This document shows positions 1 to 19,100 of a DNA stretch of 64,000 nt, one piece after another; the stretch's first letter is position 1, and each line of letters starts with the position of its first letter. The translations under genes were made by a program, and so were the position numbers. The DNA is from Torpedo marmorata (taxonomy: Eukaryota), in contig OZ360221.1 of NCBI GenBank assembly GCA_977017645.1, forward strand, positions 134,478,001-134,542,000, written 5' to 3'. The notes under the pieces are model-generated. The model ran no database searches, was not told the origin of the DNA, and worked only from the letters and a program-made list of their open reading frames with translations.

Positions 1-361
1 GTGGCCTAACTACTATTGTATACAGTTCTAACATAACCTCACTGCTCATATATTCCATGCCTTCCTAGTAAGGGAAACCAGTATGTATTTTTAAATACCT
101 TATTAACCTGTTGTGCAACCTTTCAATATTTATGGGCATAAACTCCAAAGTCTTTCTGTTCCTCCACACTTTGCATTATCTCCCCATTTATTGTCTATTC
201 TCATGCTTTGTTCCATCTCCCCAAATGCATTAGCTCCCACTTACCTGGATTGAATTCCATGAGCTACTGTTCTGCCCATCTGACAACTCCAATGATATAG
301 TTGGGTTCAATGAATGCATTACAAAATGCCAAATCCGACCAAATAGCAGCCAGAGGCACAA

Positions 362-1053
362 TATAAGTAACGGTGACTTCGCTCCACCAATAGTCACCTG
401 GAGGCTAAGTGTGGTCCTTGCTTTTGACGCGTTTTATTTAATTTACTGACAAAGTCCAATATGTTCAAAACCTTTATTTTCACACATGACTTGCAGTAAT
501 CTTCAATGACTTTAATATAAACAGTTCTTGTAAACGATGTATGATAAGTTCCTTTAAATTATTCTTTAAACAATTCCAAAACTATATGAAACACTGTAGA
601 TGATGTTAAAAGTTATAAAAACGATATAAAACGGTATAAAACGGTCAATAAAGATGTGGAGACCAGACTCACCCCCCATACATCTCTATCCTTTCTTTGT
701 TCTCTCTCTCCAATGGTTCTGCGCATGCTCCAACGCGCATACTACAATTCCCAGCCTCCCACGCGCACTATGACGTCACTTTATACTGCGCATGCGCCCG
801 TCGGCACTCCCGCGCATGCGCATATCAAAGAACGGGCCGACGACGGCCCACAGAACAACGCAAGCGCTCCAAGGCCCGACGTGGCCTCGGAGCGCGCTGA
901 GGACGGCACAGTAAACAACGCGAGCGCTCAATGGCCCGACGTGGCCCAGGAGCGCTCCGAGGACGGCCCACCGAACCACGCGAGCGCTCCATGGCCCGAC
1001 GAGACATCGGAGCGCCGCAACAACGGTAAGTTAACGAGCCTACGGCTCTTACA
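362..1053 (-). repeat. 3' LTR of BEL/Pao element
   Basis: Direct repeat of 5691-6382; begins TGTAAGAG on the minus strand directly after the PPT. Confidence 0.95.
842..1025. repeat. About 3 copies of a 60-bp CpG-rich tandem repeat within the LTR (also at 6171-6354)
   Basis: Units start gacggcccacagaacaacgc / gacggcacagtaaacaacgc / gacggcccaccgaaccacgc at 60-bp spacing. Confidence 0.85.
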
Positions 1054-1257: not shown

Positions 1258-1460
1258 TCAAAGTTCCTCTGTCTCCAACAAAAGGCAGACCTTATTAATA
1301 GGTCTGTTTAGAAAACCAGTCTTAGTTTTAATCCGCACTTGACGCACAAGTCCTCTTTGTCTTGAAAAGTCTCAATAATCTTTTCCAAGTAACCAGGAAT
1401 TTCTTGAAGTTGAATTATCCATAATAATCACAATGTCTCTTTAAAGTTCTTTATCTTCAC
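1258..1460 (-). pseudogene. Frameshifted remnant of the BEL integrase C-terminal region (DUF5641-like)
   Basis: Minus-strand translation across frameshifts gives DIVIIMDNSTSRNSWLLG...IIETF...RGLVRQVRIKTKTGFLNRPINKVCLLLETEEL*, the typical C-terminus of BEL Pol. Confidence 0.8.
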
Positions 1461-1475
1461 AATCCGAGTCAAACG

Positions 1476-4400
1476 TCAACCAGTAAACCTCAAATCCTCC
1501 TCAGACAAAATAGATACAGTTTTTCTTTTGAATTTAACACAAGGCACTTCTTCAGCACGTCGTTTCACTTTTTTCCTTTCTTCAGTACTCCACTTCTCAT
1601 GTGAAGAATTTAAACTCTTAGAATTAGAATTTGAATATTTATCTGATTCTTTCGATTTTAAACAGGTTCGTTTAATCACTCTGGTTTCTATTGCTCTTTC
1701 CTGCAATTCTAAATCCAATTTCGCAACTTTCAATTCAGTCTCAGCTCCTTCCGAGAAATTAATAATTTGGTCTGAAGTAAAAATATCATGTGGGACATTG
1801 ATATTTCCATTGTCAATCCTGTCGCGACAAACTTGAAATTTTTTAATTTCTTCATCTTGCTTGTTACATTTCTGCAATGCAATCTCACATTCTTTCTGCA
1901 TTGTTAATTGTTGAACATTCAATTTACATTCTTGATTGGTTTTAAAAGTCAACTGTTTTGTGTTATTAACCAATAACTTGATCTCTTTCAAAACATTAAT
2001 CTCTTCCTCCAACCTTTTACATTTTGATAATGCTGAATCTCTTTCCTCAATAACTGTATTCATTTCTTCAGCAGTTATTCTTTTCTTCCGCTTTCTAACT
2101 TTGCGAGTTTTACTTACAATTAAATCTTTCTGTTTACTGTTTTCTTGCTTATTTAATATTTCCAATTCTCCTTTCAACATTTTGTTCTCTGGATTCAATT
2201 GCATTGAATTATCATTCACATTATTCTTTATTCCATCAGCACAATTTTCTGTGTTTTCCAGTTTTACATCACATTGTAATATTTCTTCATTAGCTTTGTC
2301 TGTTGTAATCTCTGAACTACAAAATCTACATTCAGATTTGTTTTCAGTCACTTGTTTTATTCCTGTATCTGATTCAATTACACATGAATGATCAATAGTA
2401 TTATTTGCAACATCTTTTAATACTTCACTTTCATCCTCTAACACTTCACTTTCATCCATTTCTGACGAAATTAATTCCTTCAATGTTGTTTTAAATACCA
2501 TTGATTTATTTTCACATTGATCTGTTTTCTTTTCTTCATAAGTGATTTTCTTATTCACGGTTTTTTGCTCTTCTTTTAACTCTTCAAATTTCTCAACTGA
2601 AATTTTATTAACATTTATCGCTACCTGTTCCTGAGCAATATCATTATTTCTTTCCATTGGCCCATTGATTGCCCAACCAAGTATGGTTCTAATAGCGTAA
2701 GGTCCATTCCTTTTACTTTCTATTACTTCTTTTGGTACCAAAACCTTTGGCACATCTGAACCAATCAGCATTTCTATCTCAGAATTAATTTCAGGTAAAT
2801 AAACCTTCCACAGATAAGCTAAATGATGGATATCACTTTGATGAGGAATATTTCCTTCGTTCACAGGCATAGTCTTCTGAGTATATACACTTGGAAGATC
2901 ACAAAATTTTTTGTCATCCAATCCAGCAACCTCTAAGCCTGAAACAATGTTAGTTTCAACAACCTTTTCTTGTCCCATGGTTTTTAACATAATTCTTGAT
3001 TTTCTTCCTTGAATATTAAGTTTATTCATTAGTCCTTCCGTGCAAAAAGATGCAGTGCTACCTGGGTCTAGAAATGCATATGTTTTTACTATTGCATCCC
3101 CTTTCTTGGCCTTAACTTGTACAGGCACTATTGAAAGTTTGCAGTTATTCACCCCGGCCCCAGTAAGACCACTTGTCTGCACCGAGGTTATAACATTATT
3201 TTCTGTTGTTTCCTTTGTTTCTGTTTGCTCCTTTTCCAATTCCTTGTTTCTGTTATGGATATGCAAAATTCTAGGATGTTTAAAATTGCATATGTCACAA
3301 TTAATTTGCTTCTCGCAGTTTTTACTGATGTGCCCTTTACACAGACAGCTAAAACATATTCCATTTTCCTTTAAGAAAGCGATCCTTTCTTTATGTTCCT
3401 TCCTTTCCAATTGTAAACACATTTCCAAAGCATGTCCACCTTTACAGAACAAACAACTCTTTTCATTAGGCAAACTTTCCTTTTCCTTATTTATTTTGTC
3501 CTTTTCTTTACTTATAACTTGCACATTAGTAGCAAAAGTACTCCTTTTCACTTTCGGACTAGACTGTGAATTAGACTTCCTTACATCTTTGCTCATTGAA
3601 TTATCTCTGGTATTTCCATATAGTGGATCTGTTTCAACATACACTTGTCGTTCAAGAAAATTTACCAAATCCTTTAAAGTAATTCTTCGACCATAATTTA
3701 CTTGTAAATCACAAGCCAAATTTCTCCATCTATCCCATACCTTGTAAGGTAATTTTTCTAAAATGATTCGCATATTACTATGCACATCAAGCTCACGAAT
3801 ACCATCGATTTCTTCCATAGCATTACAACATCCTCTTAAAAACAAAGTATATTCTTGCAAAGCCTTTACATCATTTTGTTTTATTGATGTCCATTTAAGA
3901 GCTTTATCCATATAAGCTAAAGCAATTCGATGTTTGTTGCCAAAATATTGTTCCAATAAAGCCTTAGCTTTATCTAATCCTCTTCCTGAAGACATTTGGT
4001 TACAACTTTTTACCAGTTCTTTTGGATGTCCCTTTGTGAACATTTCCAAATAATAAAGACATTCATCTCGATCTTGGCATTTATCTTCAATATTGCGTTT
4101 GAAAGATCTCATAAACGATTGATATTGAAGTGGATCACCATCAAAAGTTTGTATCTCTTTCTTGGGTAAAGAAGAGAGAGACTGTAACTGAAACAATGAT
4201 GCAGCAATTTCATTTTGTCTTTCCTTGGATGACAATACATTGCTCTGCTCACTGTTTCTTGTTGCATGCAATGTATCTGGAAACCTTACTGGTGTAGTTT
4301 CCTCCATATTTCTGATGCTTGTCTCATATAACAAAGAAGCTGCTTCGTTCGACCGTACCCAATCCGCAGCTTTGCTTTCAGATGTTATTATTGGTACATG

Positions 4401-5246
4401 TGACTCGATACCAATATGCTCTTGAAAGGTTTGTCTTTGTATATGTAAGTTTTGTATCCTTGGTTCTAAAATATCTATCCTTTTGGTTGGTTTCTTTTCC
4501 TGTGACTCCTTTTTTAAATATGACCTTTTATCATCAGACAATTTAGATGATTTACTGCTAACACCAGATACCATTGAGCCTTCGATTGCTTTCTTTTCTG
4601 CCTTGGCAATAGCAATGTTTGCTTCCAGCTCCTGCAGTTCTTTTCTCTGTCTTAGCTGCTCCTTCTCTTGTCTTAGCTGCTCCTCCTTTTGTCTTAGTTG
4701 TTCCTCTTCTTGTTCTAATATAAATTTATCCTTAAGCGTTTTTTGTTGTGCAAGAAGAGTAGCCAATTTAACATCAACCTTTGTACGTGACGATGCAGAA
4801 CTTGAAGTACAAGAAACTCTGGAGCTTGAACCAGAACTTCTTTTGCTTCTCCTGCTTACAGCATTTGAGACACTGTCACTCGCTTGTATTTCGTCCTGCA
4901 GTTCATATGTTGTCTTCATACTTACCTCTTTATCCAATTCAAATTGTATATCCTTTGCATCTTCAACCACTTCAATTTCTTCAACATTTGGTGACACAAT
5001 TTCAGCCATTTCCACGTTATCTTCTTGTTCAACTAATGAAGCTGCCTCTTCATCCTTTGCCAGCTTCAATCTTTCGATAAGAACCTTTTTATTTCCACTT
5101 ATGTCCTTTTTCAGTCGCTTCAATTCTTCTTTAATATCTGAAACCTTCATGTCTTCAATACGTTGGTCCTCAACAGCAACATCAGCGGTTGCTGCGTCAG
5201 CTGCTGATAAATCAGTAGCTGCTGTATCAGTAGCTGCTGCGGCCAT
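1476..5246 (-). CDS. Chimeric BEL/Pao polyprotein: SAP domain - Gag (DUF1759-like, Cys/His knuckles) - aspartic protease - foreign coiled-coil C-terminus (MIPOL1-like)
   Basis: Uninterrupted ORF; ATG at 5246 in good Kozak context (gtaaaATGG); SAP at ~5057-5163; LPKKEIQTFDGDPLQYQSFMRSF gag motif; CLFCKGGHALEMC, CFSCLCKGHISKNC, CDICNFKHPRILH knuckles; YAFLDPGSTASF protease site at ~3045-3080; no RT motifs follow. Confidence 0.9.
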   Translation of the reverse strand: MAAAATDTAATDLSAADAATADVAVEDQRIEDMKVSDIKEELKRLKKDISGNKKVLIERLKLAKDEEAASLVEQEDNVEMAEIVSPNVEEIEVVEDAKDIQFELDKEVSMKTTYELQDEIQASDSVSNAVSRRSKRSSGSSSRVSCTSSSASSRTKVDVKLATLLAQQKTLKDKFILEQEEEQLRQKEEQLRQEKEQLRQRKELQELEANIAIAKAEKKAIEGSMVSGVSSKSSKLSDDKRSYLKKESQEKKPTKRIDILEPRIQNLHIQRQTFQEHIGIESHVPIITSESKAADWVRSNEAASLLYETSIRNMEETTPVRFPDTLHATRNSEQSNVLSSKERQNEIAASLFQLQSLSSLPKKEIQTFDGDPLQYQSFMRSFKRNIEDKCQDRDECLYYLEMFTKGHPKELVKSCNQMSSGRGLDKAKALLEQYFGNKHRIALAYMDKALKWTSIKQNDVKALQEYTLFLRGCCNAMEEIDGIRELDVHSNMRIILEKLPYKVWDRWRNLACDLQVNYGRRITLKDLVNFLERQVYVETDPLYGNTRDNSMSKDVRKSNSQSSPKVKRSTFATNVQVISKEKDKINKEKESLPNEKSCLFCKGGHALEMCLQLERKEHKERIAFLKENGICFSCLCKGHISKNCEKQINCDICNFKHPRILHIHNRNKELEKEQTETKETTENNVITSVQTSGLTGAGVNNCKLSIVPVQVKAKKGDAIVKTYAFLDPGSTASFCTEGLMNKLNIQGRKSRIMLKTMGQEKVVETNIVSGLEVAGLDDKKFCDLPSVYTQKTMPVNEGNIPHQSDIHHLAYLWKVYLPEINSEIEMLIGSDVPKVLVPKEVIESKRNGPYAIRTILGWAINGPMERNNDIAQEQVAINVNKISVEKFEELKEEQKTVNKKITYEEKKTDQCENKSMVFKTTLKELISSEMDESEVLEDESEVLKDVANNTIDHSCVIESDTGIKQVTENKSECRFCSSEITTDKANEEILQCDVKLENTENCADGIKNNVNDNSMQLNPENKMLKGELEILNKQENSKQKDLIVSKTRKVRKRKKRITAEEMNTVIEERDSALSKCKRLEEEINVLKEIKLLVNNTKQLTFKTNQECKLNVQQLTMQKECEIALQKCNKQDEEIKKFQVCRDRIDNGNINVPHDIFTSDQIINFSEGAETELKVAKLDLELQERAIETRVIKRTCLKSKESDKYSNSNSKSLNSSHEKWSTEERKKVKRRAEEVPCVKFKRKTVSILSEEDLRFTG

Positions 5247-5690
5247 TTTACTCGTCTTGTTCCTCTTTCCTTCAAGCATACACAACACTAGTCAAACAAC
5301 AGTCCCCAATGGACCAGCGGCAGCAATTCCAATCTGTGTTCTTACTTGCTAAAGATACACAGAAGGAGTCCACAGACTTATGCCTACCACTTCTAATGAC
5401 TGTAATGTGCTGCAATCCTTAAACGAGTTTCAACCACAACATCCGTCATTAATATCACTGATTTTCCAAAAATAGTTTCTCCAACGTATTTATAGGACAC
5501 TTTATTATAAGATTTGAAGCTTTAAATCCCTCTCTGGCTGTTATTCATGGCAGATGGATGTAGATTACAAACTGCCCCCAACTCGAGGCATCTCCAAAAT
5601 GGCCACCAATTTATATCAGTCCAAAGCACAGAGTTTTTTCTATCTTCTTTCCTTCAAACTTCTGTTCCAAACAGCCAGCCCTTTATTGAC

Positions 5691-6382
5691 TATAATTAAC
5701 GGTGACTTCGCTCCACCAATAGTCACCTGGAGGCTAAGTGTGGTCCTTGCTTTTGACGCGTTTTATTTAATTTACTGACAAAGTCCAATATGTTCAAAAC
5801 CTTTATTTTCACACATGACTTGCAGTAATCTTCAATGACTTTAATATAAACAGTTCTTGTAAACGATGTATGATAAGTTCCTTTAAATTATTCTTTAAAC
5901 AATTCCAAAACGATATGAAACACTGTAGATGATGTTAAAAGTTATAAAAACGATATAAAACGGTATAAAACGGTCAATAAAGATGTGGAGACCAGACTCA
6001 CCCCCCATACATCTCTATCCTTTCTTTGTTCTCTCTCTCCAATGGTTCTGCGCATGCTCCAACGCGCATACTACAATTCCCAGCCTCCCACGCGCACTAT
6101 GACGTCACTTTATACTGCGCATGCGCCCGTCGGCACTCCCGCGCATGCGCATATCAAAGAACGGGCCGACGACGGCCCACAGAACAACGCAAGCGCTCCA
6201 AGGCCCGACGTGGCCTCGGAGCGCGCTGAGGACGGCACAGTAAACAACGCGAGCGCTCAATGGCCCGACGTGGCCCAGGAGCGCTCCGAGGACGGCCCAC
6301 CGAACCACGCGAGCGCTCCAAGGCCCGACGAGACATCGGAGCGCCGCAACAACGGTAAGTTAACGAGCCTACGGCTCTTACA
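5691..6382 (-). repeat. 5' LTR of BEL/Pao element
   Basis: Direct repeat of 362-1053, flanked by TSD CACAA. Confidence 0.95.
6049..6151 (-). promoter_or_regulatory. Putative LTR promoter: NRF1-like motifs, ZNF143/THAP11-type motif, CRE palindrome, TATA
   Basis: ACTACAATTCCCAGC 6070-6084; TGACGTCA 6100-6107; TATAAA on the minus strand at ~6109-6114; TGCGCATGCGC 6116-6126 and CGCGCATGCGCA 6140-6151; same motifs at 720-822 in the 3' LTR. Confidence 0.6.
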
Positions 6383-7038
6383 CACAACATAATTCATTAT
6401 TCACATTAGTATTCCCTCTTAATTGGGGTAGGTCCAAAGCATGCTTCATCTAACTCTCATATATGTAATACACTGCAAGCCCCCTGTCCAAATCCCGCAA
6501 TTTCCACACTCTGTCAACTCTTTATTCATGTCACTCAAACATATTGCAAGACATTGACACACTCATTGCTGTAAGATAAGGCACATAAAGGTAGCAGACG
6601 TCAAGTGGAGGTGGGGACATGAGCCAGCACTTTCTAACTCTCTGGAAAGAACTTTATTGAAAGCCTGGGTTATGACACTCCAAAATAGTTGCACAGGTGT
6701 AAAATTCACTTTTCACACCATTTAGTATCTTGATATAATTGCTCTCCACACTTTCTTTAAAAACCAGAAATTAACGGTGTGCATGGTAGTGCTATTTACT
6801 AATATGGTATCTGAGGTGCTACACATCAGGAATGTGTTGCTGGAGGTGTTGCTGTCAGAAAGGCATGCTTTCATACATTTAACATGAATTGTCTATTGAG
6901 AACAGCGCTAAGACATTACATCATATCTTGGTTAGACTCAGGTTATGTCTCATTCTAGGTCTCTGATTCATAATCTAGAGAGGTGAGGCAATAAAAGTTT
7001 GCTGATGGTGGAATAAATGAATTGATGAATGATAGTTG

Positions 7039-10000
7039 TGTGGCGCCCCGCCACCGCGGAGATCGAGCTGACACATCGCGCGGCGCGCACGGTAGTAAAC
7101 AGCGGCATAACACACTGTAACGCGACCCTTAGCATAGCGAACCGGCGCGGTTGAAAGCTGGAGCAGTACAAGACCAGCAGCCCTAAAATGGCACTGGCCA
7201 AGCTGCCCAGCTAACAGATCAATACCAGGCTGGGGAAGAAGGGTATTCATATGCAAGAACGTTCCCGCCCGCTGTTGTTATTCATGCGGCTGATGTCAAC
7301 CCATCAACCAAACGGCGGGAACTCCAACTGTATAAAAGAAGCATTTCCAGCGTCAATAAAGCAGAGAGCTTAACCTTCCACACTGCGTGTGTGTGTTTCT
7401 TCGTAGCAGTCGGCTACAATTGGTGACCTTGACGGTTTAGACGGCATCTAAACCCAGCGATGGATAGCGAAGCAGCGATCAGCGCAGTCGGCTTCAAACT
7501 CCCGACCTTCTGGACAGTTCGACCCGGCGTGTGGTTCGACCAGGCTGAGGCTCAGTTCCAGATTCTGGGCATCACAGCTGAGACCACACGGTACTACCAC
7601 GTGGTCAGCGCCCTGGATCCAGAGACTGCAGACATGGTGGCCAACTTCATCCAGAGGCCACCATCGGAAGGCACTTACACTGCCTTCAAAGAGCTATTGA
7701 CTGAGACCTACGGGCTCTCGCGGTGAGAGAGAGAGGCACAGCTGCTCCACCTGGATGGGCTAGGGGACAGATCCCTGTCAGTGCTCATGAACGAGATGCT
7801 AGTCCTCCTGGGAGACCACGAGCCCTGCGTCATGTTCGAGCAGGCGTTCTTGGAGCAGCTGCCCGAGGACATCCAACTGCTCCTGGCTGACGCAGATTTC
7901 AGCGACCCCCGGAAAGTCGCAGCACGGGCAGATATTCTATGGAAGCAGAAACAGAAGTGCTCGGCTACCGTGGGGCTCGTCATGAATTCTCGCAACCAGA
8001 CCAAGGCAGGCCCTGGAAAGGAGCAGCAGGCAAGAGGCAGGGACGAGTCCAAGGAGAGATGGTGCTTCTACCACCAAAGATGGGGCTCCGAGGCCCGCTG
8101 ATGCTGGTCGCCCTGCGAGTTCCATGGAAACGACAAGGCCAGCCATCGCTGATGGCCACAGCGGCTGGCCATCGACAGCCTCCTGAAGGAATGGGATCGC
8201 CTTTCTGGTAGACGATTCTTGGTGGATACAGGAGCGGAGGTCAGCGTGATGCCCCCGACAGGTTTGGACACTAGATGCAGGCAAGCAGGCCCCACGTTGA
8301 GGGCTGCCAACAACAGCAGCATATGGACCTATGGCAAGCGTAGGTCCGAGCTGCAGTTTGGAGGCAGTCACTTCTCGTGGGAGTTCACACTGGCCACAGT
8401 GGAACAGCCACTCCTCGGAGCCGACTTCCTGCGGGCCCACAGCCTCCCAGTGGACCTCAAGAGCAAGAGACTCATGCACGCGGAAACGTTCCAAACCTTC
8501 ACACTGAGGGGCGCCGGGCTCCCGGCACTGCACCTGGACTCCGTCCACAGCTTGGACGATGAGTTCTCCAAAGCGCTGGCCGAGTTTCCGGCAATCCTTT
8601 CCCCTCAGTTCATGGTGGAGGTGCCCCGACACGGCGTCAGGCATCACATCCTTACCAAGGGCCCACCTCTCCATGCAAGGGTGAGACGACTTCCCCTGGA
8701 GAAGCTTCAACTGGCCAAGGAGGAGTTCCGCAAGCTCGAGGAGTTAGGCATCGTTCGGTGGTCGGGCAGTCCATGGGCTTCTCCCCTGCACATGGTGCCC
8801 AAAGCATCTGGGGGCTGGAGACCGTGTGGCGACTACCACTGGCTTAACGAGGCCACCACTCCAGATCGTTACCCCGTGCCGCATATCCAGGACTTTGCGG
8901 CAAACCTGCACGGAGCGACGATCTTCTCCAAAGTGGACGGTGCGAGGGTACCACCAAATCGCGGTGCACCCTGACGACACCCCCAAGACAGCCATCATCA
9001 CTCCATTCGGGCTGTTTGAGTTCCTGAGGATGCCATTCGGGCTCAAGAACGCGGCACAGACCTTCCAGCGACTGATGGACGTGGTGGGCCGAGACCTGGA
9101 CAGCACCTTCGTCTACTTAGACGATATCCTGGTGGCGATCAGAGCCCGGCAGGAACATCTACAACACCTCCGAAGCCTCTACAGTCACCTACGTGAGTTC
9201 GGCCTTACTATCAACCTGGCTAAATGCCAGTTCGGGCTGAGCACGATTGACTTCCTGGGCCACAGGATTACCAAATGCGGGGCCACGCCACTACCCAGCA
9301 AGATGGAGGCTATCCGCAACTTCCCGAGGCCCAGTACAACCAACGACTGCAGGAGTTCGTGGAGATGGTCAACTTTTATCGCAGGTTCATCCCCACAGCT
9401 GCTCGAACCATGCGCCCACTCTTCACCCTGATGACCGGCAAGGCGAAGGACTTGACCTGGGACGATGACTCCGCACGAGCGTTCGTGGAATCAAAGGAAG
9501 CCCTGGCTAATGCCGCACTCCTAGCCCACCCAAGGTCAGACGCACCCACAGCCCTCACGGTCGATGCCTCAGGAACGGCGATTGGTGGAGTTCTGGAGCA
9601 GCAGATAGAAGTAAGTTGGCGTCCACTAGCTTTCTTCAGAAAACATCTGCGGCTCCCTGAGCTAAAGTACAGTGCTTTCGACAGAGAGCAACTGGCGCTG
9701 TACTTAGCCATCCGCCACTTCCGGTACTTCCTAGAAGGAAGGGCTTTCATGGCTTTCACGGACCACAAGCCACTGACACTCGCCCTGCCCAAGAATTCCG
9801 ATCCATGGTCAGCTTGCCAGCAGAGACAACTGTCTTACGTCTCGGAGTACACCACCGACGTAAGGCACATCTCGGGAAAAGACAACGTGGTCGCGGACGT
9901 CTTGTCGAGACAGAGCATCCACTCTCTGGCTAACGGACTGGATTTCGTGGCACTGGTGGAGGCACAGCAGCAGGACGACGAGATGCCTCAGTACAGGACC

Positions 10001-11597
10001 GCCGTCACGGGGTTGCAGCTTCAGGACATCCTAGTCGGCACAGGTAACACTACCCTCTTGTGCGACGTGGCCATCGGGTAGGTTCGACCTATCATCCCAA
10101 CGGCATGGAGGCGACGAGTTTTTGACTCCATCCACGGGCTGGCACATCCATCAATCAGGACCATGGTCCGCTTGGTGGCCAGCAAGTACGCGTGGCATGG
10201 ATTGCGGAAACAAGTCAGCGGGTGGGCCAAGACATGCACACAGTGACAAACAGCCAAGGTACAGCGGCACACCAAGGTCCCCCCGCAGCCTTTCGAGTCA
10301 ACGGAGCGAAGGTTTGACCACATTCACGTGGACATAGTGGGACTCTTACCAGTTTCACAGGGTTTCCGCTACCTGTTCACGGTGGTCGACCATTTCACCC
10401 GGTGGCCAGAAGCAATCCCCCTGGCCGACACATCCACCAGGTCCTGCGCCAAGGCACTCGTCTCGTCCTGGGTAGCAAGGTTCAGGCTACCATGCCACAT
10501 AACCTCCGACAGAGGCGCACAATTTATATCCAGCCTGTGGACCGACGTTGCCAACTTGTGGGGCGTTCAGCTACAACACACAACAGCATACCACCCGCAG
10601 TCTAATGGGCTGGTTGAGCGCTTCCACAGGCACCTCAAGGCCGCCCTTATGACCAGACTCAAGGGCCCCAACTGGGTTGACGAACTGCCATAGGCACTGC
10701 TGGGGATTCGTACAGCCCCGAAGGAAGACCTCCACACATCCTCCGCCGAGCTCGTCTACGGAGCTCCACTCATGGTCCCCGGGGATTTCGTCCCACCGGC
10801 CAGAGGTCAACAGGAGGATACAACCACCTTCCTGGACAGGCTGCGGGAAAAGGTCGGTAACCTGGCTCCGATCCCACCCTCCAGATATGGGCAAGCCAAG
10901 TTCAACATCCCTAAAGAACTCCAAGACTGTGAGTATGTGTTCGTACGCAGAGGGCCACTCCGTCCACCGCTACAGAAGCCCTACGAAGGCCCCCTCCGAG
11001 TCGTCCGGAACAACGGGGCCACCTTCGAACTGGACATCGGTGGCAAACCAGAGGTCTTCACCACAGACAGGCTCAAAGCGGCACACACGGACCTGACACA
11101 ACCCGTGGAGACGCCAGCACCTCGGCGCAGAGGCAGACCACCAAAGACATTGGGGACTGCATCCATGTACACTATGAACTGTAGCGCCAGTTCTGGGGGG
11201 GAGTTCATGTGGCGGCCCACCACCGTGGAGATCGAGCCGGCACATCGCGTGGCGCGCACGATAGTAAACAGCGGCATAACACACTGTAACGCGACCCTTA
11301 GCATAGCAAACCGGCGCGGTTGAAAGCTGGAGCAGTACAAGACCAGCAGCCCTAAAATGGCGCTGGCCAAGCTGCCCAGCTAACAGATCAATAGCAGGCT
11401 GGGGAAGAAGGGTATTTATATGCAAGAACGTTCCCGCCCGCTATTTTTATTCATGCGGCTGATGTCAACCAATCAACCAAACGGCGGGAACTCCAACTGT
11501 ATAAAAGAAACATTTCCAGCCTCAATAAAGCAGAGAGCTTAACCTTCCACACTGTGTGTGTGTGTGTGTGTGTGTTTCTTCGTAGCAGTCGGCTACA
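7039..11597 (+). mobile_element. Gypsy/Ty3 LTR retrotransposon (CsRn1-like), full-length but decayed
   Basis: LTRs 7039-7418 and 11208-11597 (TG...CA); 4-bp TSD GTTG; degenerate tRNA-Trp-like PBS TGGTGACCTTGACG at 7421; PPT GGGGGGGAG before the 3' LTR; PR-RT-RH-IN order. Confidence 0.93.
7460..11200 (+). pseudogene. Gypsy gag-pol, disrupted by stops and frameshifts
   Basis: Gag KLPTFWTVRPGVWFDQAEAQF; protease LVDTGAEVS; RT YLDDILV; RNase H LTVDASG...FTDHKPL; integrase ITSDRGAQF...YHPQSNGLVERFHR; split over many ORFs. Confidence 0.9.
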
Positions 11598-14447
11598 GTT
11601 GCAATTTATGATTGCAGTTTACTTTTCTTCAATAAATATTTAGCAAAATAAATTTTGGCCTAGTCCCCTCTTCAGGAAAATTAAGAGCACTTAATTGCAG
11701 TTAAAATGCATAAGAAGTCTGTTGGGGCATAAACTCAGGAATACAAACACATAAATGCAGTGAAGTTGAATACTGAAGTTATTTTAATGATCACTACGAT
11801 ATCTTTAATGACTAATACAAGTGGCATAATTTAAATGAATCCATATTTTTGCAGATTATTTTCTCCCTTCGTAGTTGAATCTCTTCAGTATATTGAATTA
11901 TGTCAGCATATTGGAGATATGTCACCAATACTTTGTTTGAATTGAATTAGTATTCAAGGTTGACATCTTCCATGCCATCAAATCTGATTGCCTTTTATGT
12001 TTTACATTCATAGATTCATTATACTGCAAGGAAGCAGGCGCTTTGGCCAACTGCTCCAAGTCACACAAGATGCTTATTTAAGCGAATCCCATTTGTCTGT
12101 GTTTGGCCCATATCCTCTGGAGCTTTTCTATGCATTGTCTCTGATTAAATGATTTTTAAGTGTTGTAATTATACCTCTGTCTGTCACCCTCTCTGGCAGC
12201 TTGCACCATATCAACCACCTCGATTTCTCCACTCCCCTAATCCACTCTAACCTCAATTCCTCAGAACACACAGCACTGAACTCTCTTTGCACCAACCCTA
12301 ACCTCGTTACCACCCTTGGTCTTGATGAAGGATTCTGACCTAAAACCTCTTCTCAAGGTGGGACTGTGTGATCAACCCCTCCATATATTTTGCTGTGGCT
12401 GCTGCCCCCACAGGGTCTCTTATGCTAAAGCTTCTTAAAGATTCACTGAGAGTAAATGCAAAACAACCTAACTATATTTTGGACCCAAAACAGCTGCATC
12501 ATATATCACTCTGTGCCCAGTTACATGCAGATGCTTAAATAGAAGTTAAGCTTTAGTTAATTGATTATCAGCATTGGATCAAAGGGCTGAGTGACCTGTG
12601 TCCATGCTGTATCTCTATGATTTTGTGACTCAAATATGTTAGTTCCTCTCTATTAAACTGATCACTGATGTGCAGAAACCTAACTGGCTTAATATTCTGT
12701 GGTGAAAGGCAAGCCCAGCTGCCATCTAAAGGTAACTTTTTATTCAGGCTAATTTTGAAGCCTCTCTGCTTGGACAGAAAGGTAGTTTCTCCTCTGCCTC
12801 CCCTCCATTTACTCCTGATGTTCACACTCTGGTGAGTTAGGCTGCCTGAGATGAGTAAGGTACCTATGGGAGATGTGTCTGACCCTTGCAAGTAGCACAG
12901 AATAATTAACTGAAGGCCAGGGGCCATTCTGCAAAGGCATGTGCTGTTCATGCATTGTCAAGACCAGACCTGTAAGTAGATTAATTTCTACACCCTGTGT
13001 CATACATCTTTTTCTCCTACTTCAAACAATTTAAGGTTTAAACATAATCTTCCTTTTAGAAATGCTCCCTCATTAATTTTTACCATATTCTCTACCTCTT
13101 GATAATTTGTTATCGGATCTTTGAGGAAATGTCTACCTCTTCTTCACCACCAACATTAAGATAACTGGTCTATTCTTATTGACAGAATGAAGCAGAAACA
13201 TCCCTGATATAGTAGGGATGTTTTATAATAGTACAGGTAACTGTCCTGGAGTTGCAATATGTGTTAAGAACAATCAAATGCACAAAAATTTCTGACACTC
13301 ATTATTTTCTATTTAAGCCATTAGATCCAATTGTTGAGGAGATATGCAATGGGTCATACATTTACAACAAAAGCCGTCTCCTCTTCACAGCATGTAATGG
13401 AATGTAATTACAGATATTAATGGAAAGTGCCTGACTTCTTACTTCACCACCATCGCTTCAATGTGGGGCTATAGAGTCATCTCATGATGCTTGAAATAAT
13501 ATTTGAGTGTAATGCCTTTAAAGCTTCTATATGTCAAACTCCTTTGTGTCTTACGAAGGCTGAGACCTCACTATTGGCAGCTGCCTAATTTAAATTTGGT
13601 TAATTACCAGTAATTAAATACAAATGGAATAAGAATTTACTGTCAGTAGAGGTGACAGTGAAACAACTGGATTTTCATTTACACCACACCTAATTCACCA
13701 ATGCCCTCCAGGAAAGGGAATGTCTTATCCCTCCAGCATTTGAAGCCAGACTAACAATAACATGGTTGATTCTTGGTGCTCAAAAAAGCTTATCAACCTC
13801 TTAATTCTATCAAAACTCCTATTAAACTCTACTATAATTAAACCAACAGGGTCATCAATCTAACCAGCTGATTCAATCCTGCCAACCTTCAAAGATGTAA
13901 AAATTAATATGTAGACATTTTAGCAAAATTGGGGAAGAAATATTTCACAGACAAGCAATAGCCCAACATATTCATACTTAGAGAATCAGAACTTCAGCCA
14001 TCAGCATAGACTGTACACTGCAAAAGAGTGACTACACAGTGGTATGTCGTCAAGAAGAATGTCCTGGAAGCCCTCAACATTGACATGGGACACAATGAAG
14101 TCTCACACAATAAGGTTGAATATAGGTGAGGAAACATCTTTCTGATTACCACCAACCACACTCTCTCAGCTGATGAATCAACACTCACTATTTTTGAAGA
14201 CCATTTGAAAGACTCTCTGAGGGTAGCAAAGCCATCCGAACCTATGAATATGATTTAAGGTCAATGAAACATTGTCACTGCTGTAATACAGGACAAATCA
14301 GGAATGGCCACAGTGGGGGGCGTGGTTTGATGGCGTAGGTTGGAGACGTGGAAATACACCTCTCTCCACAGATTTAATCAAAAACTGTTTATAAGAAACT
14401 TTATTTAGTTTTAAAATAAGTTAAGAGTGTTTAATAAAGGCTTAAGA

Positions 14448-15835: not shown

Positions 15836-16120
15836 AAGATATGATAATAAATGTTGTGTAAAATCTATTGGGGGGGGGGGGGGTGGACTTTTTGTTTTCT
15901 CCTTCCTAGCCGCACACCACTTTAGTGGTGAGGGCCACTTCCCGAGTAATGGAGGGGGCTAATACTGGGGTAATTTTGCCAGTATTGTATACAGTGGGAT
16001 TTTGTTTCTTTTTTATTTTCTTTTTCTTTCTTTCTCTTTTTAAGGAGATGTCAAATAGATTACGAATGTGGAGCAGGGTGCTGGTGGATCTGATGGAGAG
16101 AGAGTTATTAAGAATTAGTA

Positions 16121-19100
16121 ATGGTGGATAGTAAATCAATAAATGTAGTAAGTATTAATATAAATGGGCTAAATAACCCGATTAAAAGGAAGAAAACTTT
16201 AGCGTATATTAAAAAGTTAAATGTAGATATAGCTTTTTTACAAGAGACACATTTGACAGATTTAGAACATCAGAAGTTGAAGAGAGAATGGGTTGGTCAA
16301 ATGGTTGCATCTTCATTTAATTCTAAAGCAAGAGGAGTTGCTATATTAGTTAATAAAAAGTTATCTTTTAAAATACAATCTGTGGTTATAGATGTGGTAG
16401 GTAGATATGTTTTAATACATTGTCAGATATATTCAGAAATGTGGACACTTATGAATATATATATGTACCAAATATGGAAGATGAACAATTCATTCAAGAT
16501 TCTTTTATGCATTTGTCAGAAGCTAATGACAATATTTTAATTGGTGGGGATTTTAATTGTTGTTTAGATCCGATAATGGATAAAACATCGAAATCAGTTG
16601 TTAAAACTAAAATTGCTAAAAGAATTCTTATTTTGATGAAAGATTTAAATTTAATAGATATTTGGAGAAAGTTGAATCCAAGAGAAAAAGATTATTCTTT
16701 TTATTCTTTTAGACATGATTCATATTCTAGGATAGATATGTTTTTGTTGTCCTCACAAGTACAAGATAGGGTAACACAAGCACATTTTAAAGCAAGAATA
16801 ATTTCTGATCATTCGTCTTTATTAATGTCTTGTATAATTCCAGAAAAATAAAAAAACTATATATAGGTGGAGATTTAATTCCTCTTTATTAAAAAGAATG
16901 GATTTTTGTAATTATATAAGAAGAGAAATTCAAGAATTTTTACAGATTAATTCTAATTCGATTGATAATAAATTTATTATTTGGGAAGCTTTAAAGGCTT
17001 ATTTAAGAGGCCAAATAATAAGTTATTCAGCAAAAGTTAAGAAGGAATATGTTCGGGAGGTGGATAATTTGGAGTGGGAGATTGAATTCTTGGAGAAGGA
17101 CTTGCAAAAAAAGAGATCAAAAGAAAAGAGGAAAAATTTAATTGGGAAAAAAATTGTATTATAATATGTTACAAACACATAAAATGTAAAAATTAATTGA
17201 AAGAACTAAGCAAAGATATTATGAATTGGGAGAAAGAGCACATAAAGTGTTGGCGTGGCAATTAAAGAAAGATCAAACCTCAAGAACTATAAATGCTATA
17301 AAAAAGAATTCCAAGAAAATAACATATAAACCTCGAGAAATAAATGGTTCTTTTAAGGATTTTTATTTGAACATATAAATTTCAAATTGATAAAGATGAT
17401 TCGAAAATTAATGAATTCCTATCTAAAATTAAATTACCTAGATTAAATACTCAAAGTAAAGAACTTTTAGATTTGTCTTTTTCAATGAGGGAAGTTAATG
17501 ATGTTCTTAGTTCTTTAACGAGTGGTAAATCTCCAGGGGAGGATGGTTTCCCATCAGAATTTTATAAGGAGTTTAAAGATTTATTGATACCTCCATATAT
17601 GGATGTGTTGAAACAAATAACGGAAACTCATTCATTACCGGAAACATTTTTGAATGCAATAATTACAGTTATACCTAAAAAAGGTAGAGATGTGTTGAAA
17701 ACAGAATCATATAGACCAATTTCATTGTTAAATGTGGATTATAAGATAATGGCAAAAAAATTAGCAAATAGAGTGGATAATTATTTACCAGATTTAATCC
17801 ATGTAGATCAAGCTGGTTTTATTAAGAATAGATACTCAAAAGATAATATAGCTAGATTAATTAGTTTAATTAATGTAGCACAAAAAAAGAGGACCTAGCA
17901 TTAGTATTAACATTAGATGCTGAAAAGGCTTTTGACAGATTAGAGTGGAATTATTTATTTGAGGTATTGGGGAAATTTGGTTTTGGAACTACATTTATTG
18001 ATTGGATTAAAACTATATATAAAGAACCATCTGCTAAAGTGGTGACAAATGGACAAATTTCTTCAAAATTTTCTTTGACTAGGTCAACTAGACAAGGATG
18101 TCCTATGTCGCCTGCATTGTTTATTTTAGCAATAGAACCTTTAGCAGAATTAATTAGACAAGATACTAAGATTGTAGGCATTAAAGTTGGAAGAGAAGAG
18201 CATAAAATTAGTTTATTTGCAGATGATGTATTGATTTATATGACAAAACCTATTATTTCTTTAATACAATTGAATGTTTTATTGAAAGAATATGGGGAAA
18301 TATCTGGTTATAAGATTAATTCTGATAAAAGTGAAATTATGGCATTGACACAAGGGGATTATAATAAATGTAAAGAAATTACACAAATTAAATGGTCAAA
18401 TGAAGGAATTAAATATTTGGGAATAAAGATTGATACAAAATTAGCTAATTTATATAAATTAAATTATTTACCATTATTTATGAAAATTAAAAAAGATTTA
18501 GAAAGTTTGAAGGATTTACCTATAACTTTAATAGGAAGGGTAAACTGTATTAAAATGAATGTCTTTCCAAGAATTCAATATCTTTTTCAATCAATTCCTT
18601 ACAAAATCCCTTCAAAATTTTTTAAGGATTTAAATTTAATTATTAGGAAGTTTTTGTGGAAAGGAAAGTTGGCTAGAGTAGGTATGGAGGAGTTAACTTG
18701 GAATTGTGAAATGGGTGGTTTACAACTTCCTAATTTTCAAAATTATTATAAAGCAGCTCAATTAAAATTTGTTAATGAAATGTTTGATTTAGGTAAGTCT
18801 TCTGCTTGGATTAGAATAGAACTAAATAATATAGGAGAAGATTTGAAAGAAGAAGATATTTATAAATGGAATTCTAAATTATTATTAACAATTGGCAAGA
18901 ATTCTCCTATTTTTAAACATTTGTTAGAAATATGGAATAGAGTGGATAGGGAGATAGGAGGGAAAGGGTCGATTTCTCAAAAAATGCCTTTATATCAAAA
19001 TAAACTTATTCCATTTACTGTTGATAAAATTTGGTTCCAAAAGGGAATTAAGAAAATAAATGATTGTTTTGAAGCTAGTAAATTTATTACTTTTCAAAGA

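Follow-up and report, generated by a model that had tools for sequence, protein, structure and literature searches.

The window analysed here, 64,000 nucleotides of the Torpedo marmorata genome, carries on its minus strand a 6.0-kb BEL/Pao element (6382–362) that almost certainly captured RNA of three host genes. BRCA1, MIPOL1 and Elongin A (ELOA) sequences lie in this order, intronless, at the usual place of pol. Our overall model, to which we give a probability of about 0.7, is that of a non-autonomous BEL/Pao element whose pol was replaced by an in-frame, spliced BRCA1-MIPOL1-Elongin A cassette with a back-to-front join from a circular RNA, mobilised by a helper and retained as a spacer. 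An earlier note on this DNA had claimed that host MIPOL1 was fused in frame to Gag-protease in place of pol. This was borne out by MIPOL1 matches without any pol families, and the peptides it quoted are present in the translation. Its account of the extension was incomplete, since BRCA1 and Elongin A had been missed and three genes were captured.

Structure of the element

The element has two LTRs, a 5-bp target-site duplication, and a BEL-type Gag and protease within one ORF (Table 1). This ORF (1476–5291, minus strand) spans 1,271 amino acids from stop to stop, with an ATG at 5246. We take the triple Cys/His knuckle pattern of its Gag to be typical of BEL elements. The LTR termini were TG...TA in the young family and TG...CA in several old copies. 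RT, RNase H and integrase families were absent from the ORF in a Pfam scan; judged by its sequence, the element is a non-autonomous BEL/Pao derivative devoid of RT, Pao RNase H and integrase. What had been read as a frameshifted integrase tail turned out to be a broken DUF5641 remnant, not an integrase core.

Homology to a pol-bearing partner family stopped at 2565, with an identical breakpoint in 11/11 intact partner copies, and resumed from 1439; about 3.2 kb of pol lies between these points in the partner. The Gag-protease region was mostly 92–96% identical to the partner and most partner copies matched the stretch 1439–362 at 96–98% identity. Alignment of an intact relative's protein to the window protein was confined to amino acids 1–1011 and 2076–2126 of the former.

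Table 1. Features of the BEL/Pao element, in window coordinates.
Feature	Position	Strand	Remarks
Target-site duplication, 5' side, 5 bp	6383..6387	-	Same 5-mer on both flanks
5' LTR, termini TG...TA	5691..6382	-	99.57% identity to 3' LTR over 693 nt
Single Gag-protease-cassette ORF	1476..5246	-	1,256 aa counted from ATG
SAP domain, Gag N-terminus	5064..5159	-	PF02037, E 4.4e-08; SAP also in pol-bearing partner
BEL Gag domain DUF1759	3723..4145	-	PF03564, E 4.2e-05, slightly short of curated cut-off
Three Cys/His knuckles, BEL-type Gag	3258..3452	-	Read from translation
Aspartyl protease (DPGS at ~3065) and post-protease segment	2565..3140	-	Weak PF13650 match, E 0.14
Captured BRCA1 mRNA piece	2128..2569	-	Host exon join kept at 2456|2455; 120-nt deletion blurs 3' edge
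MIPOL1 exon F, 3' part	2022..2127	-	
MIPOL1 exon G	1917..2021	-	
MIPOL1 exon H	1822..1916	-	
Back-splice-type junction, exon H end to exon B start	1821..1822	-	Gap-free in 54/54 copies
MIPOL1 exon B (5' part) and exon C (3' part)	1671..1821	-	81-nt in-frame deletion between
Elongin A (ELOA) remnants	1471..1661	-	ORF stop near their end
Broken BEL 3' tail, DUF5641 remnant	1261..1439	-	E 1.6e-4, 22.3 bits against a cut-off of 23.1
3' LTR	362..1053	-	
Target-site duplication, 3' side, 5 bp	357..361	-	5-mer same as 5' flank

Captured MIPOL1 sequence

The last 368 amino acids of the ORF matched MIPOL1 (49% identity at the best E, 3.5e-28), with rays and sharks giving the strongest matches. The search returned 192 proteins at E ≤ 0.01 from 4,243 candidates; all of the 120 matches listed had two precomputed Pfam domains in common, and those with a name were nearly all MIPOL1. 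A PDB sequence search with the window tail gave weak vimentin matches only, and the Pfam scan gave no MIPOL1 family match there. In pairwise alignment, the main block corresponded to MIPOL1 amino acids 313–466 (E 2e-29) and the downstream block to amino acids 262–290 (E 4e-06), in reversed order.

A full-protein search and an exon I search each pointed to one host MIPOL1 locus, on contig G000:C40 (the 49,865 first-look candidates of the protein search at this step are not a copy number). Exons B–H were mapped within 320 kb between a large exon (A) and exon I. They measure 136, 106, 130, 34, 171, 108 and 95 nt, all with AG/GT ends; they sum to 780 nt, and read as a circle they contain no stop. 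The captured MIPOL1 sequence in old copies is a 587-nt arc that consists of the 3' part of F, then G and H, followed by B, C and 18 nt of D. Its identity to the host exons was ~95% in old copies and 78–90% in the window copy, which carries the same arc minus 81 nt internally. Four cassette-bearing copies (L066, L067, L075 and L082) lie inside host MIPOL1 introns.

The joins F|G, G|H and H|B were gap-free in 21/21 young, 29/29 old and 4/4 intron-resident copies; in old copies, B|C was gap-free in 25/26 and C|D in 23/25. The arc thus crosses host exon-exon joins without introns, which agrees with the RNA-level capture that the earlier note had proposed to check. The H-to-B join fuses a host donor to an upstream host acceptor. 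In 15 of 29 old copies, an 18-mer of host H end and host B start was preserved letter for letter, and the host-predicted H-to-B 19-mer occurred 239 times genome-wide (control 0). The MIPOL1 blocks, previously described as shuffled, are therefore indeed reversed, but by an exact exon-to-exon join of the back-splice type and not by random shuffling. Exon B has a tandem NAGNAG acceptor, and the captured junction takes the upstream AG (L056:383-390). At L091:7835-8954, beside a second copy, parts of the arc are tandemly repeated within one copy.

BRCA1, Elongin A and the assembly of the cassette

The segment upstream of MIPOL1 was identified as BRCA1 (7/7 matches; best E 1.2e-56, a ray) and the downstream segment as Elongin A (PDB 8oev_M, E 6.5e-32; PF06881). 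In long old copies, the BRCA1 piece comprises four host exons, in normal order, from contig C61; the Elongin A piece comprises five host exons on contig C41. AG/GT exon ends were mapped in the host for MIPOL1, BRCA1 and ELOA alike. Among the 11 old copies examined, exon joins were gap-free in 5/5, 5/5 and 3/4 of the copies covering them for BRCA1, and in 3/3, 5/5, 10/10 and 8/10 for ELOA. Two cassette-bearing copies (L186, L187) were seen in host sequence upstream of the ELOA exons that were captured. The annotated ray BRCA1 isoform P0121 showed no RING match and is possibly a gene-model artefact; its first ~190 amino acids resemble a retroelement Gag.

The BRCA1|MIPOL1 and MIPOL1|linker joins are common to all 11 old copies, which indicates that the cassette arose once. 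The linker, 17 nt between MIPOL1 and ELOA, equals the start of an old LTR at 16/17 bases, which suggests that assembly was tied to the element's own reverse transcription. Unlike the joins between exons, the gene-to-gene joins BRCA1|MIPOL1, MIPOL1|linker and ELOA|tail fall inside exons. Microsimilarity of 2–3 nt was found at BRCA1|MIPOL1 and linker|ELOA; at pol|BRCA1, the pol-bearing relatives are too diverged to compare. Inside the particle, the element's RT would have switched templates across co-packaged host RNAs, with one switch hopping over the start of the element's own LTR. The features are those of LTR-mediated chimeric retrocopies, namely intronless partial host RNA in a discontinuous LTR element and secondary retrotransposition with shared switch points.

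Origin of the back-to-front join

A circular RNA is quite probably the source of the MIPOL1 arc. As in circRNA-derived pseudogenes, the join is non-colinear and lies at exact splice sites, and the exons come only from inside the circle: the arc holds F-G-H-B-C-D, all within B–H, and exon I was seen once, in the host gene. Contigs of four sequencing runs were aligned on host exon B, and loose ends matched exon H in X1, X5 and X7, whereas X9 gave no alignment; none of these runs is registered as RNA, and the rows listed included no end matching exon A. Since element copies carry the same join, such ends fit circular RNA or element copies alike.

The same element and the same capture by RT could also have begun from a linear transcript carrying the H-to-B join, either through a since-lost tandem duplication of the 206-kb B–H block or through trans-splicing of two pre-mRNAs. 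Splicing across a tandem duplication yields an identical junction, and circularity is not proven by any rolling-circle repeat, since the arc, at 587 of 780 nt, falls short of a full turn. Exon B is preceded and exon H followed by long direct repeats (5,259 bits near the two exons, against 61 bits for an inverted repeat), and across the whole introns A-B and H-I repeats occur in both orientations, direct exceeding inverted. The few inverted and strong direct repeats give no support for back-splicing, and tandem duplication stays a rival source. However, the direct repeats belong to a common family (21 matches in 320 kb) and are not specific to the B/H pair; exons B–H are each single in the 320 kb examined, within the one host locus. 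The duplication must also have existed and then vanished, and a circular RNA from mouse Mipol1 has been reported, its exons not being given in the available part of that paper (PMC9888537). We consider a linear source unlikely.

Far less probable is that RT switched templates by chance while copying linear MIPOL1 mRNA. On that mRNA the join has a microhomology of 3 nt, and the remainder of the cassette was demonstrably assembled by RT switching. However, a random in-frame backward join meets two exon boundaries in only 9 of 248,869 cases, or in 3 of 6,286 (~5e-4) when at least 3 nt of microhomology is required, and the joins between the captured genes lie inside exons. That the whole structure is an assembly chimera, or the similarity that of generic coiled coils, has a negligible probability: the nucleotide identity to the host exons speaks against both, as do thousands of copies and the presence of the element and its H-to-B join in independent runs. 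The earlier note had named both as grounds for rejecting its claim, and both were ruled out.

The circular RNA reading can be extended: a vertebrate circular RNA may have been reverse-transcribed in a BEL particle and become part of a lasting parasitic cassette that recombines onto each helper generation, outnumbers the helper ~11 to 1 and is translated in the germline as a Gag-protease fusion. We hold this fuller version tentatively, at somewhat less than even odds. If it is true, thousands of loci would be sources of small RNAs matching BRCA1, MIPOL1 and ELOA.

Copy number and age groups

Copy number, which the earlier note had proposed to determine, was estimated with an exact 21-mer across the young junction, which occurred 11,487 times in the 6.2-Gb genome (control 0). 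It was present in 21/21 young and 0/20 mid copies in hand; since it matches no mid copies, the count is a floor for the whole family. If all these young copies were full length (6 kb each assumed), they would make up ~1% of the genome. For the partner family, a pol 21-mer present in 17/17 pol-bearing copies and 0/41 carriers occurred 1,050 times, so that carriers exceed pol-bearing copies ~11 to 1 by exact 21-mer counts. By the counts made, the window family ranks with the most amplified of this genome.

LTR identity was 99.6–100% in young, 90–98% in mid and 82–92% in old copies where a pair was found; these values describe selected subsets only, in which the 20 young and 20 mid copies were those that scored highest against their queries and the old ones those that scored highest against the MIPOL1 protein. 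The whole ORF was kept in 17/21 young copies, and the cassette frame in 21/21 young versus 13/20 mid copies. The window element had 40 scored genomic matches at 98–100% identity. The element, including its MIPOL1 part, was covered by contigs from four runs that belong to four studies and carry four different organism codes, although X4 covered it thinly. No run listed as containing the element is registered as RNA, an outcome that is neutral on transcription from the LTR. No fused protein was found at E ≤ 0.001 in 366 candidates (proteins of 690–2,198 amino acids searched). Five junction matches spaced at exactly 4,964 nt in G000:C1:1498502-1518378 suggest a tandem array of the element.

The pol-bearing partner and a probable renewal of the backbone

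A Pao RNase H search found intact elements, 11 of which were analysed (ORFs of 2,018–2,134 amino acids). In one partner copy that was scanned, RT, Pao RNase H and integrase matches were obtained. The partner LTRs were 91–98% identical to those of the window element in 10/11 copies, and the shared LTRs and termini make this family the likely donor of RT and integrase. The earlier proposal of mobilisation in trans thus gained a co-resident family that could accomplish it.

In a knuckle-protease tree of 43 copies (copy L196 was left out for coverage), old, mid and young carriers interleaved with pol-bearing copies, and a single clade for the 25 carriers was rejected (p-AU 3.4e-41). The Gag-protease dS between the window element and old carriers was 0.66–0.71, against a cassette dS of 0.37. 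Young carriers share their 3' tail with the partner, whereas old carriers are without most of it. Given a single origin of the cassette and carriers that are not monophyletic, repeated recombination with contemporary helpers is the simplest reading, and the cassette was likely handed to newer backbones in this way. Mobilisation in trans by the pol-bearing family, combined with such a hand-over, is very probable. The defective RNA would go on supplying Gag and protease while RT and integrase are borrowed from the helper, and recombination with the helper would repeatedly renew Gag-protease, 3' tail and LTRs.

Selection on the cassette

The reading frame of the cassette is conserved; the amino acids of MIPOL1 are not (dN/dS ~1). 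Compared with the host, the window cassette had 206 substitutions in 351 codons and no stops, the terminal stop inside the ELOA remnant being omitted from the test. A neutral simulation with the same spectrum predicted 11.2 stops, and 0/20,000 runs were stop-free. Seven internal length changes in the window lineage (24, 30, 120, 3, 81, 3 and 111 nt) were all multiples of 3, two small gaps at alignment edges being artefacts of BRCA1-derived sequence. Among the private indels of old copies, 3/13 were multiples of 3.

Against the host, dN/dS was 1.04 for MIPOL1 (range 1.0–1.35), 0.56 for BRCA1 (p 0.10), 0.38 for ELOA (p 0.07) and 0.72 for the whole cassette (p 0.11), so no part was significantly below 1. 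Host-side purifying selection lowers the ratio in such comparisons. Gag-protease and pol gave 0.36–0.44 and 0.17–0.21, respectively. The net cassette dN/dS between subfamilies was 0.97 (0.55–1.75) and 1.16 (0.80–1.75); for Gag-protease, the corresponding values were 0.79 for young versus mid copies (CI 0.49–1.23, not below 1) and 0.51 (0.39–0.66). In pairwise fits, the window cassette against an intact mid-age copy gave 0.51 (p 0.027), and two further fits were not significant (0.59 and 0.75); the cassette value among young copies was 0.44. The 0.51 and 0.44 make recent constraint possible. Over window positions 1476–2569, substitutions from host to element were strongly A-biased (G>A 58, C>T 46, A>G 30, C>A 26 of 206), and codon models fit poorly. 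Purifying selection on the captured protein, the mark of a transduced functional gene, thus appeared in one pair and neither in MIPOL1 nor in the net cassette values.

We hypothesize that the cassette is a translated spacer rather than a functional protein, which these ratios make probable. The open frame would hold the stop codon near the 3' LTR and thereby likely protect the RNA or the Gag output, while the amino acids drift; avoidance of nonsense-mediated decay may be the benefit. The cassette protein might instead serve the element, either as a coiled-coil spacer that aids particle assembly with the helper polyprotein or as a dominant-acting BRCA1, MIPOL1 or Elongin A fragment that favours spread, as with transduced oncogenes. 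The frame was kept through ~20% nucleotide change, carriers far outnumber pol-bearing copies, some recent comparisons gave 0.44–0.59, and the BRCA1 and ELOA parts lie below 1 against the host. Yet those against-host ratios are the ones lowered by selection in the host, MIPOL1 stays at 1.0–1.35, the net values between subfamilies are ~1, and in the window lineage deletions removed the segment of Elongin A that is best conserved, along with much of every piece. A functional protein therefore seems rather unlikely, while retaining an appreciable chance. The element has a parallel in acutely transforming retroviruses, which are replication-defective and helper-dependent and encode Gag-onc fusions. 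As in these, host coding sequence stands in frame with Gag in place of pol and a helper is needed; unlike them, the window element has no env, is germline-resident and shows no sign of lasting constraint on the captured protein sequence. The acute-retrovirus comparison of the earlier note, in its oncogene-like sense, is left unsupported by the MIPOL1 dN/dS of ~1 and the internal 81-nt loss.

Relation to known systems

The family is not described in the open literature searched. The earlier note knew of no such family, and this stands for its scale, its back-splice junction and the hand-over; multi-gene capture by LTR elements, in contrast, is already in print. Tan et al. (2016; PMC5131818) reported LTR elements that capture several genes; their cases include a Pao BATUMI chimera of two genes in Drosophila and, in mosquito, a BEL18 retrocopy. 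Their chimeric retrocopies likewise contain partial spliced host RNAs of several parental genes in a discontinuous LTR element and re-transpose non-autonomously. Those cases are young and low-copy, whereas the present family numbers >11,000 recent copies; its cassette contains a back-splice-type junction, continues the frame of an intact Gag-protease and was probably handed between backbones. The word "circular" is absent from the main text of that paper. Maize Bs1, as treated there, also fuses three unlinked host genes in one ORF within an LTR element, with switch points common to all copies (PMC5131818). Bs1 has 1–5 copies and is viewed as a functional gene, in contrast to the drifting amino acids and vertebrate host seen here.

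A non-colinear exon-exon junction was named the signature of circRNA-derived pseudogenes by Dong et al. (2016; PMC4897178). Such junctions in genomic DNA are shared with the window family, as is an association with LTRs: LTR sequence was enriched around the 33 mouse circRFWD2 copies. In the available passages of that paper, the parent circRNA is known and the mechanism is called mysterious; here the carrier, the RT donor and the LTR-start linker are visible and the parent circle is inferred. Compared with the circRFWD2 copies, the frame is open and the copy number >300-fold higher (PMC4897178). The family would thus suggest a concrete route for circRNA retrotransposition, which the available text of this founding paper leaves open (PMC4897178), and preserve an ancient back-splice-type junction as a genomic fossil.

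MIPOL1 is among the top retrocopy parents in cartilaginous fishes (bioRxiv 10.64898/2026.06.26.734816). That signal is probably the same as ours, and the window family probably explains why MIPOL1 tops such lists. The preprint reads it as germline-driven retrocopies tied to non-LTR elements, with no LTR carrier in the passages found, and neither "circular" nor "circRNA" appears in its main text. Retrocopy pipelines and circRNA callers will miscount families of this type. With its old, mid and young copies, the system resembles a defective-interfering pair in a vertebrate germline, and the age series makes it possible to measure recombination with the helper and selection that keeps a frame open without constraining its amino acids.

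Other repeats in and beside the window

A second, broken LTR element lies at 7039–11601 (plus strand), with terminal repeats 92.9% identical and gag/pol-like frames that we take to be of the gypsy type. A common LINE-like repeat, with which the MIPOL1 introns are filled as well, has a copy at 15944–18443. On the opposite strand, ~5 kb left of the window, lies an old member of the same cassette family (L084:4773-5356).
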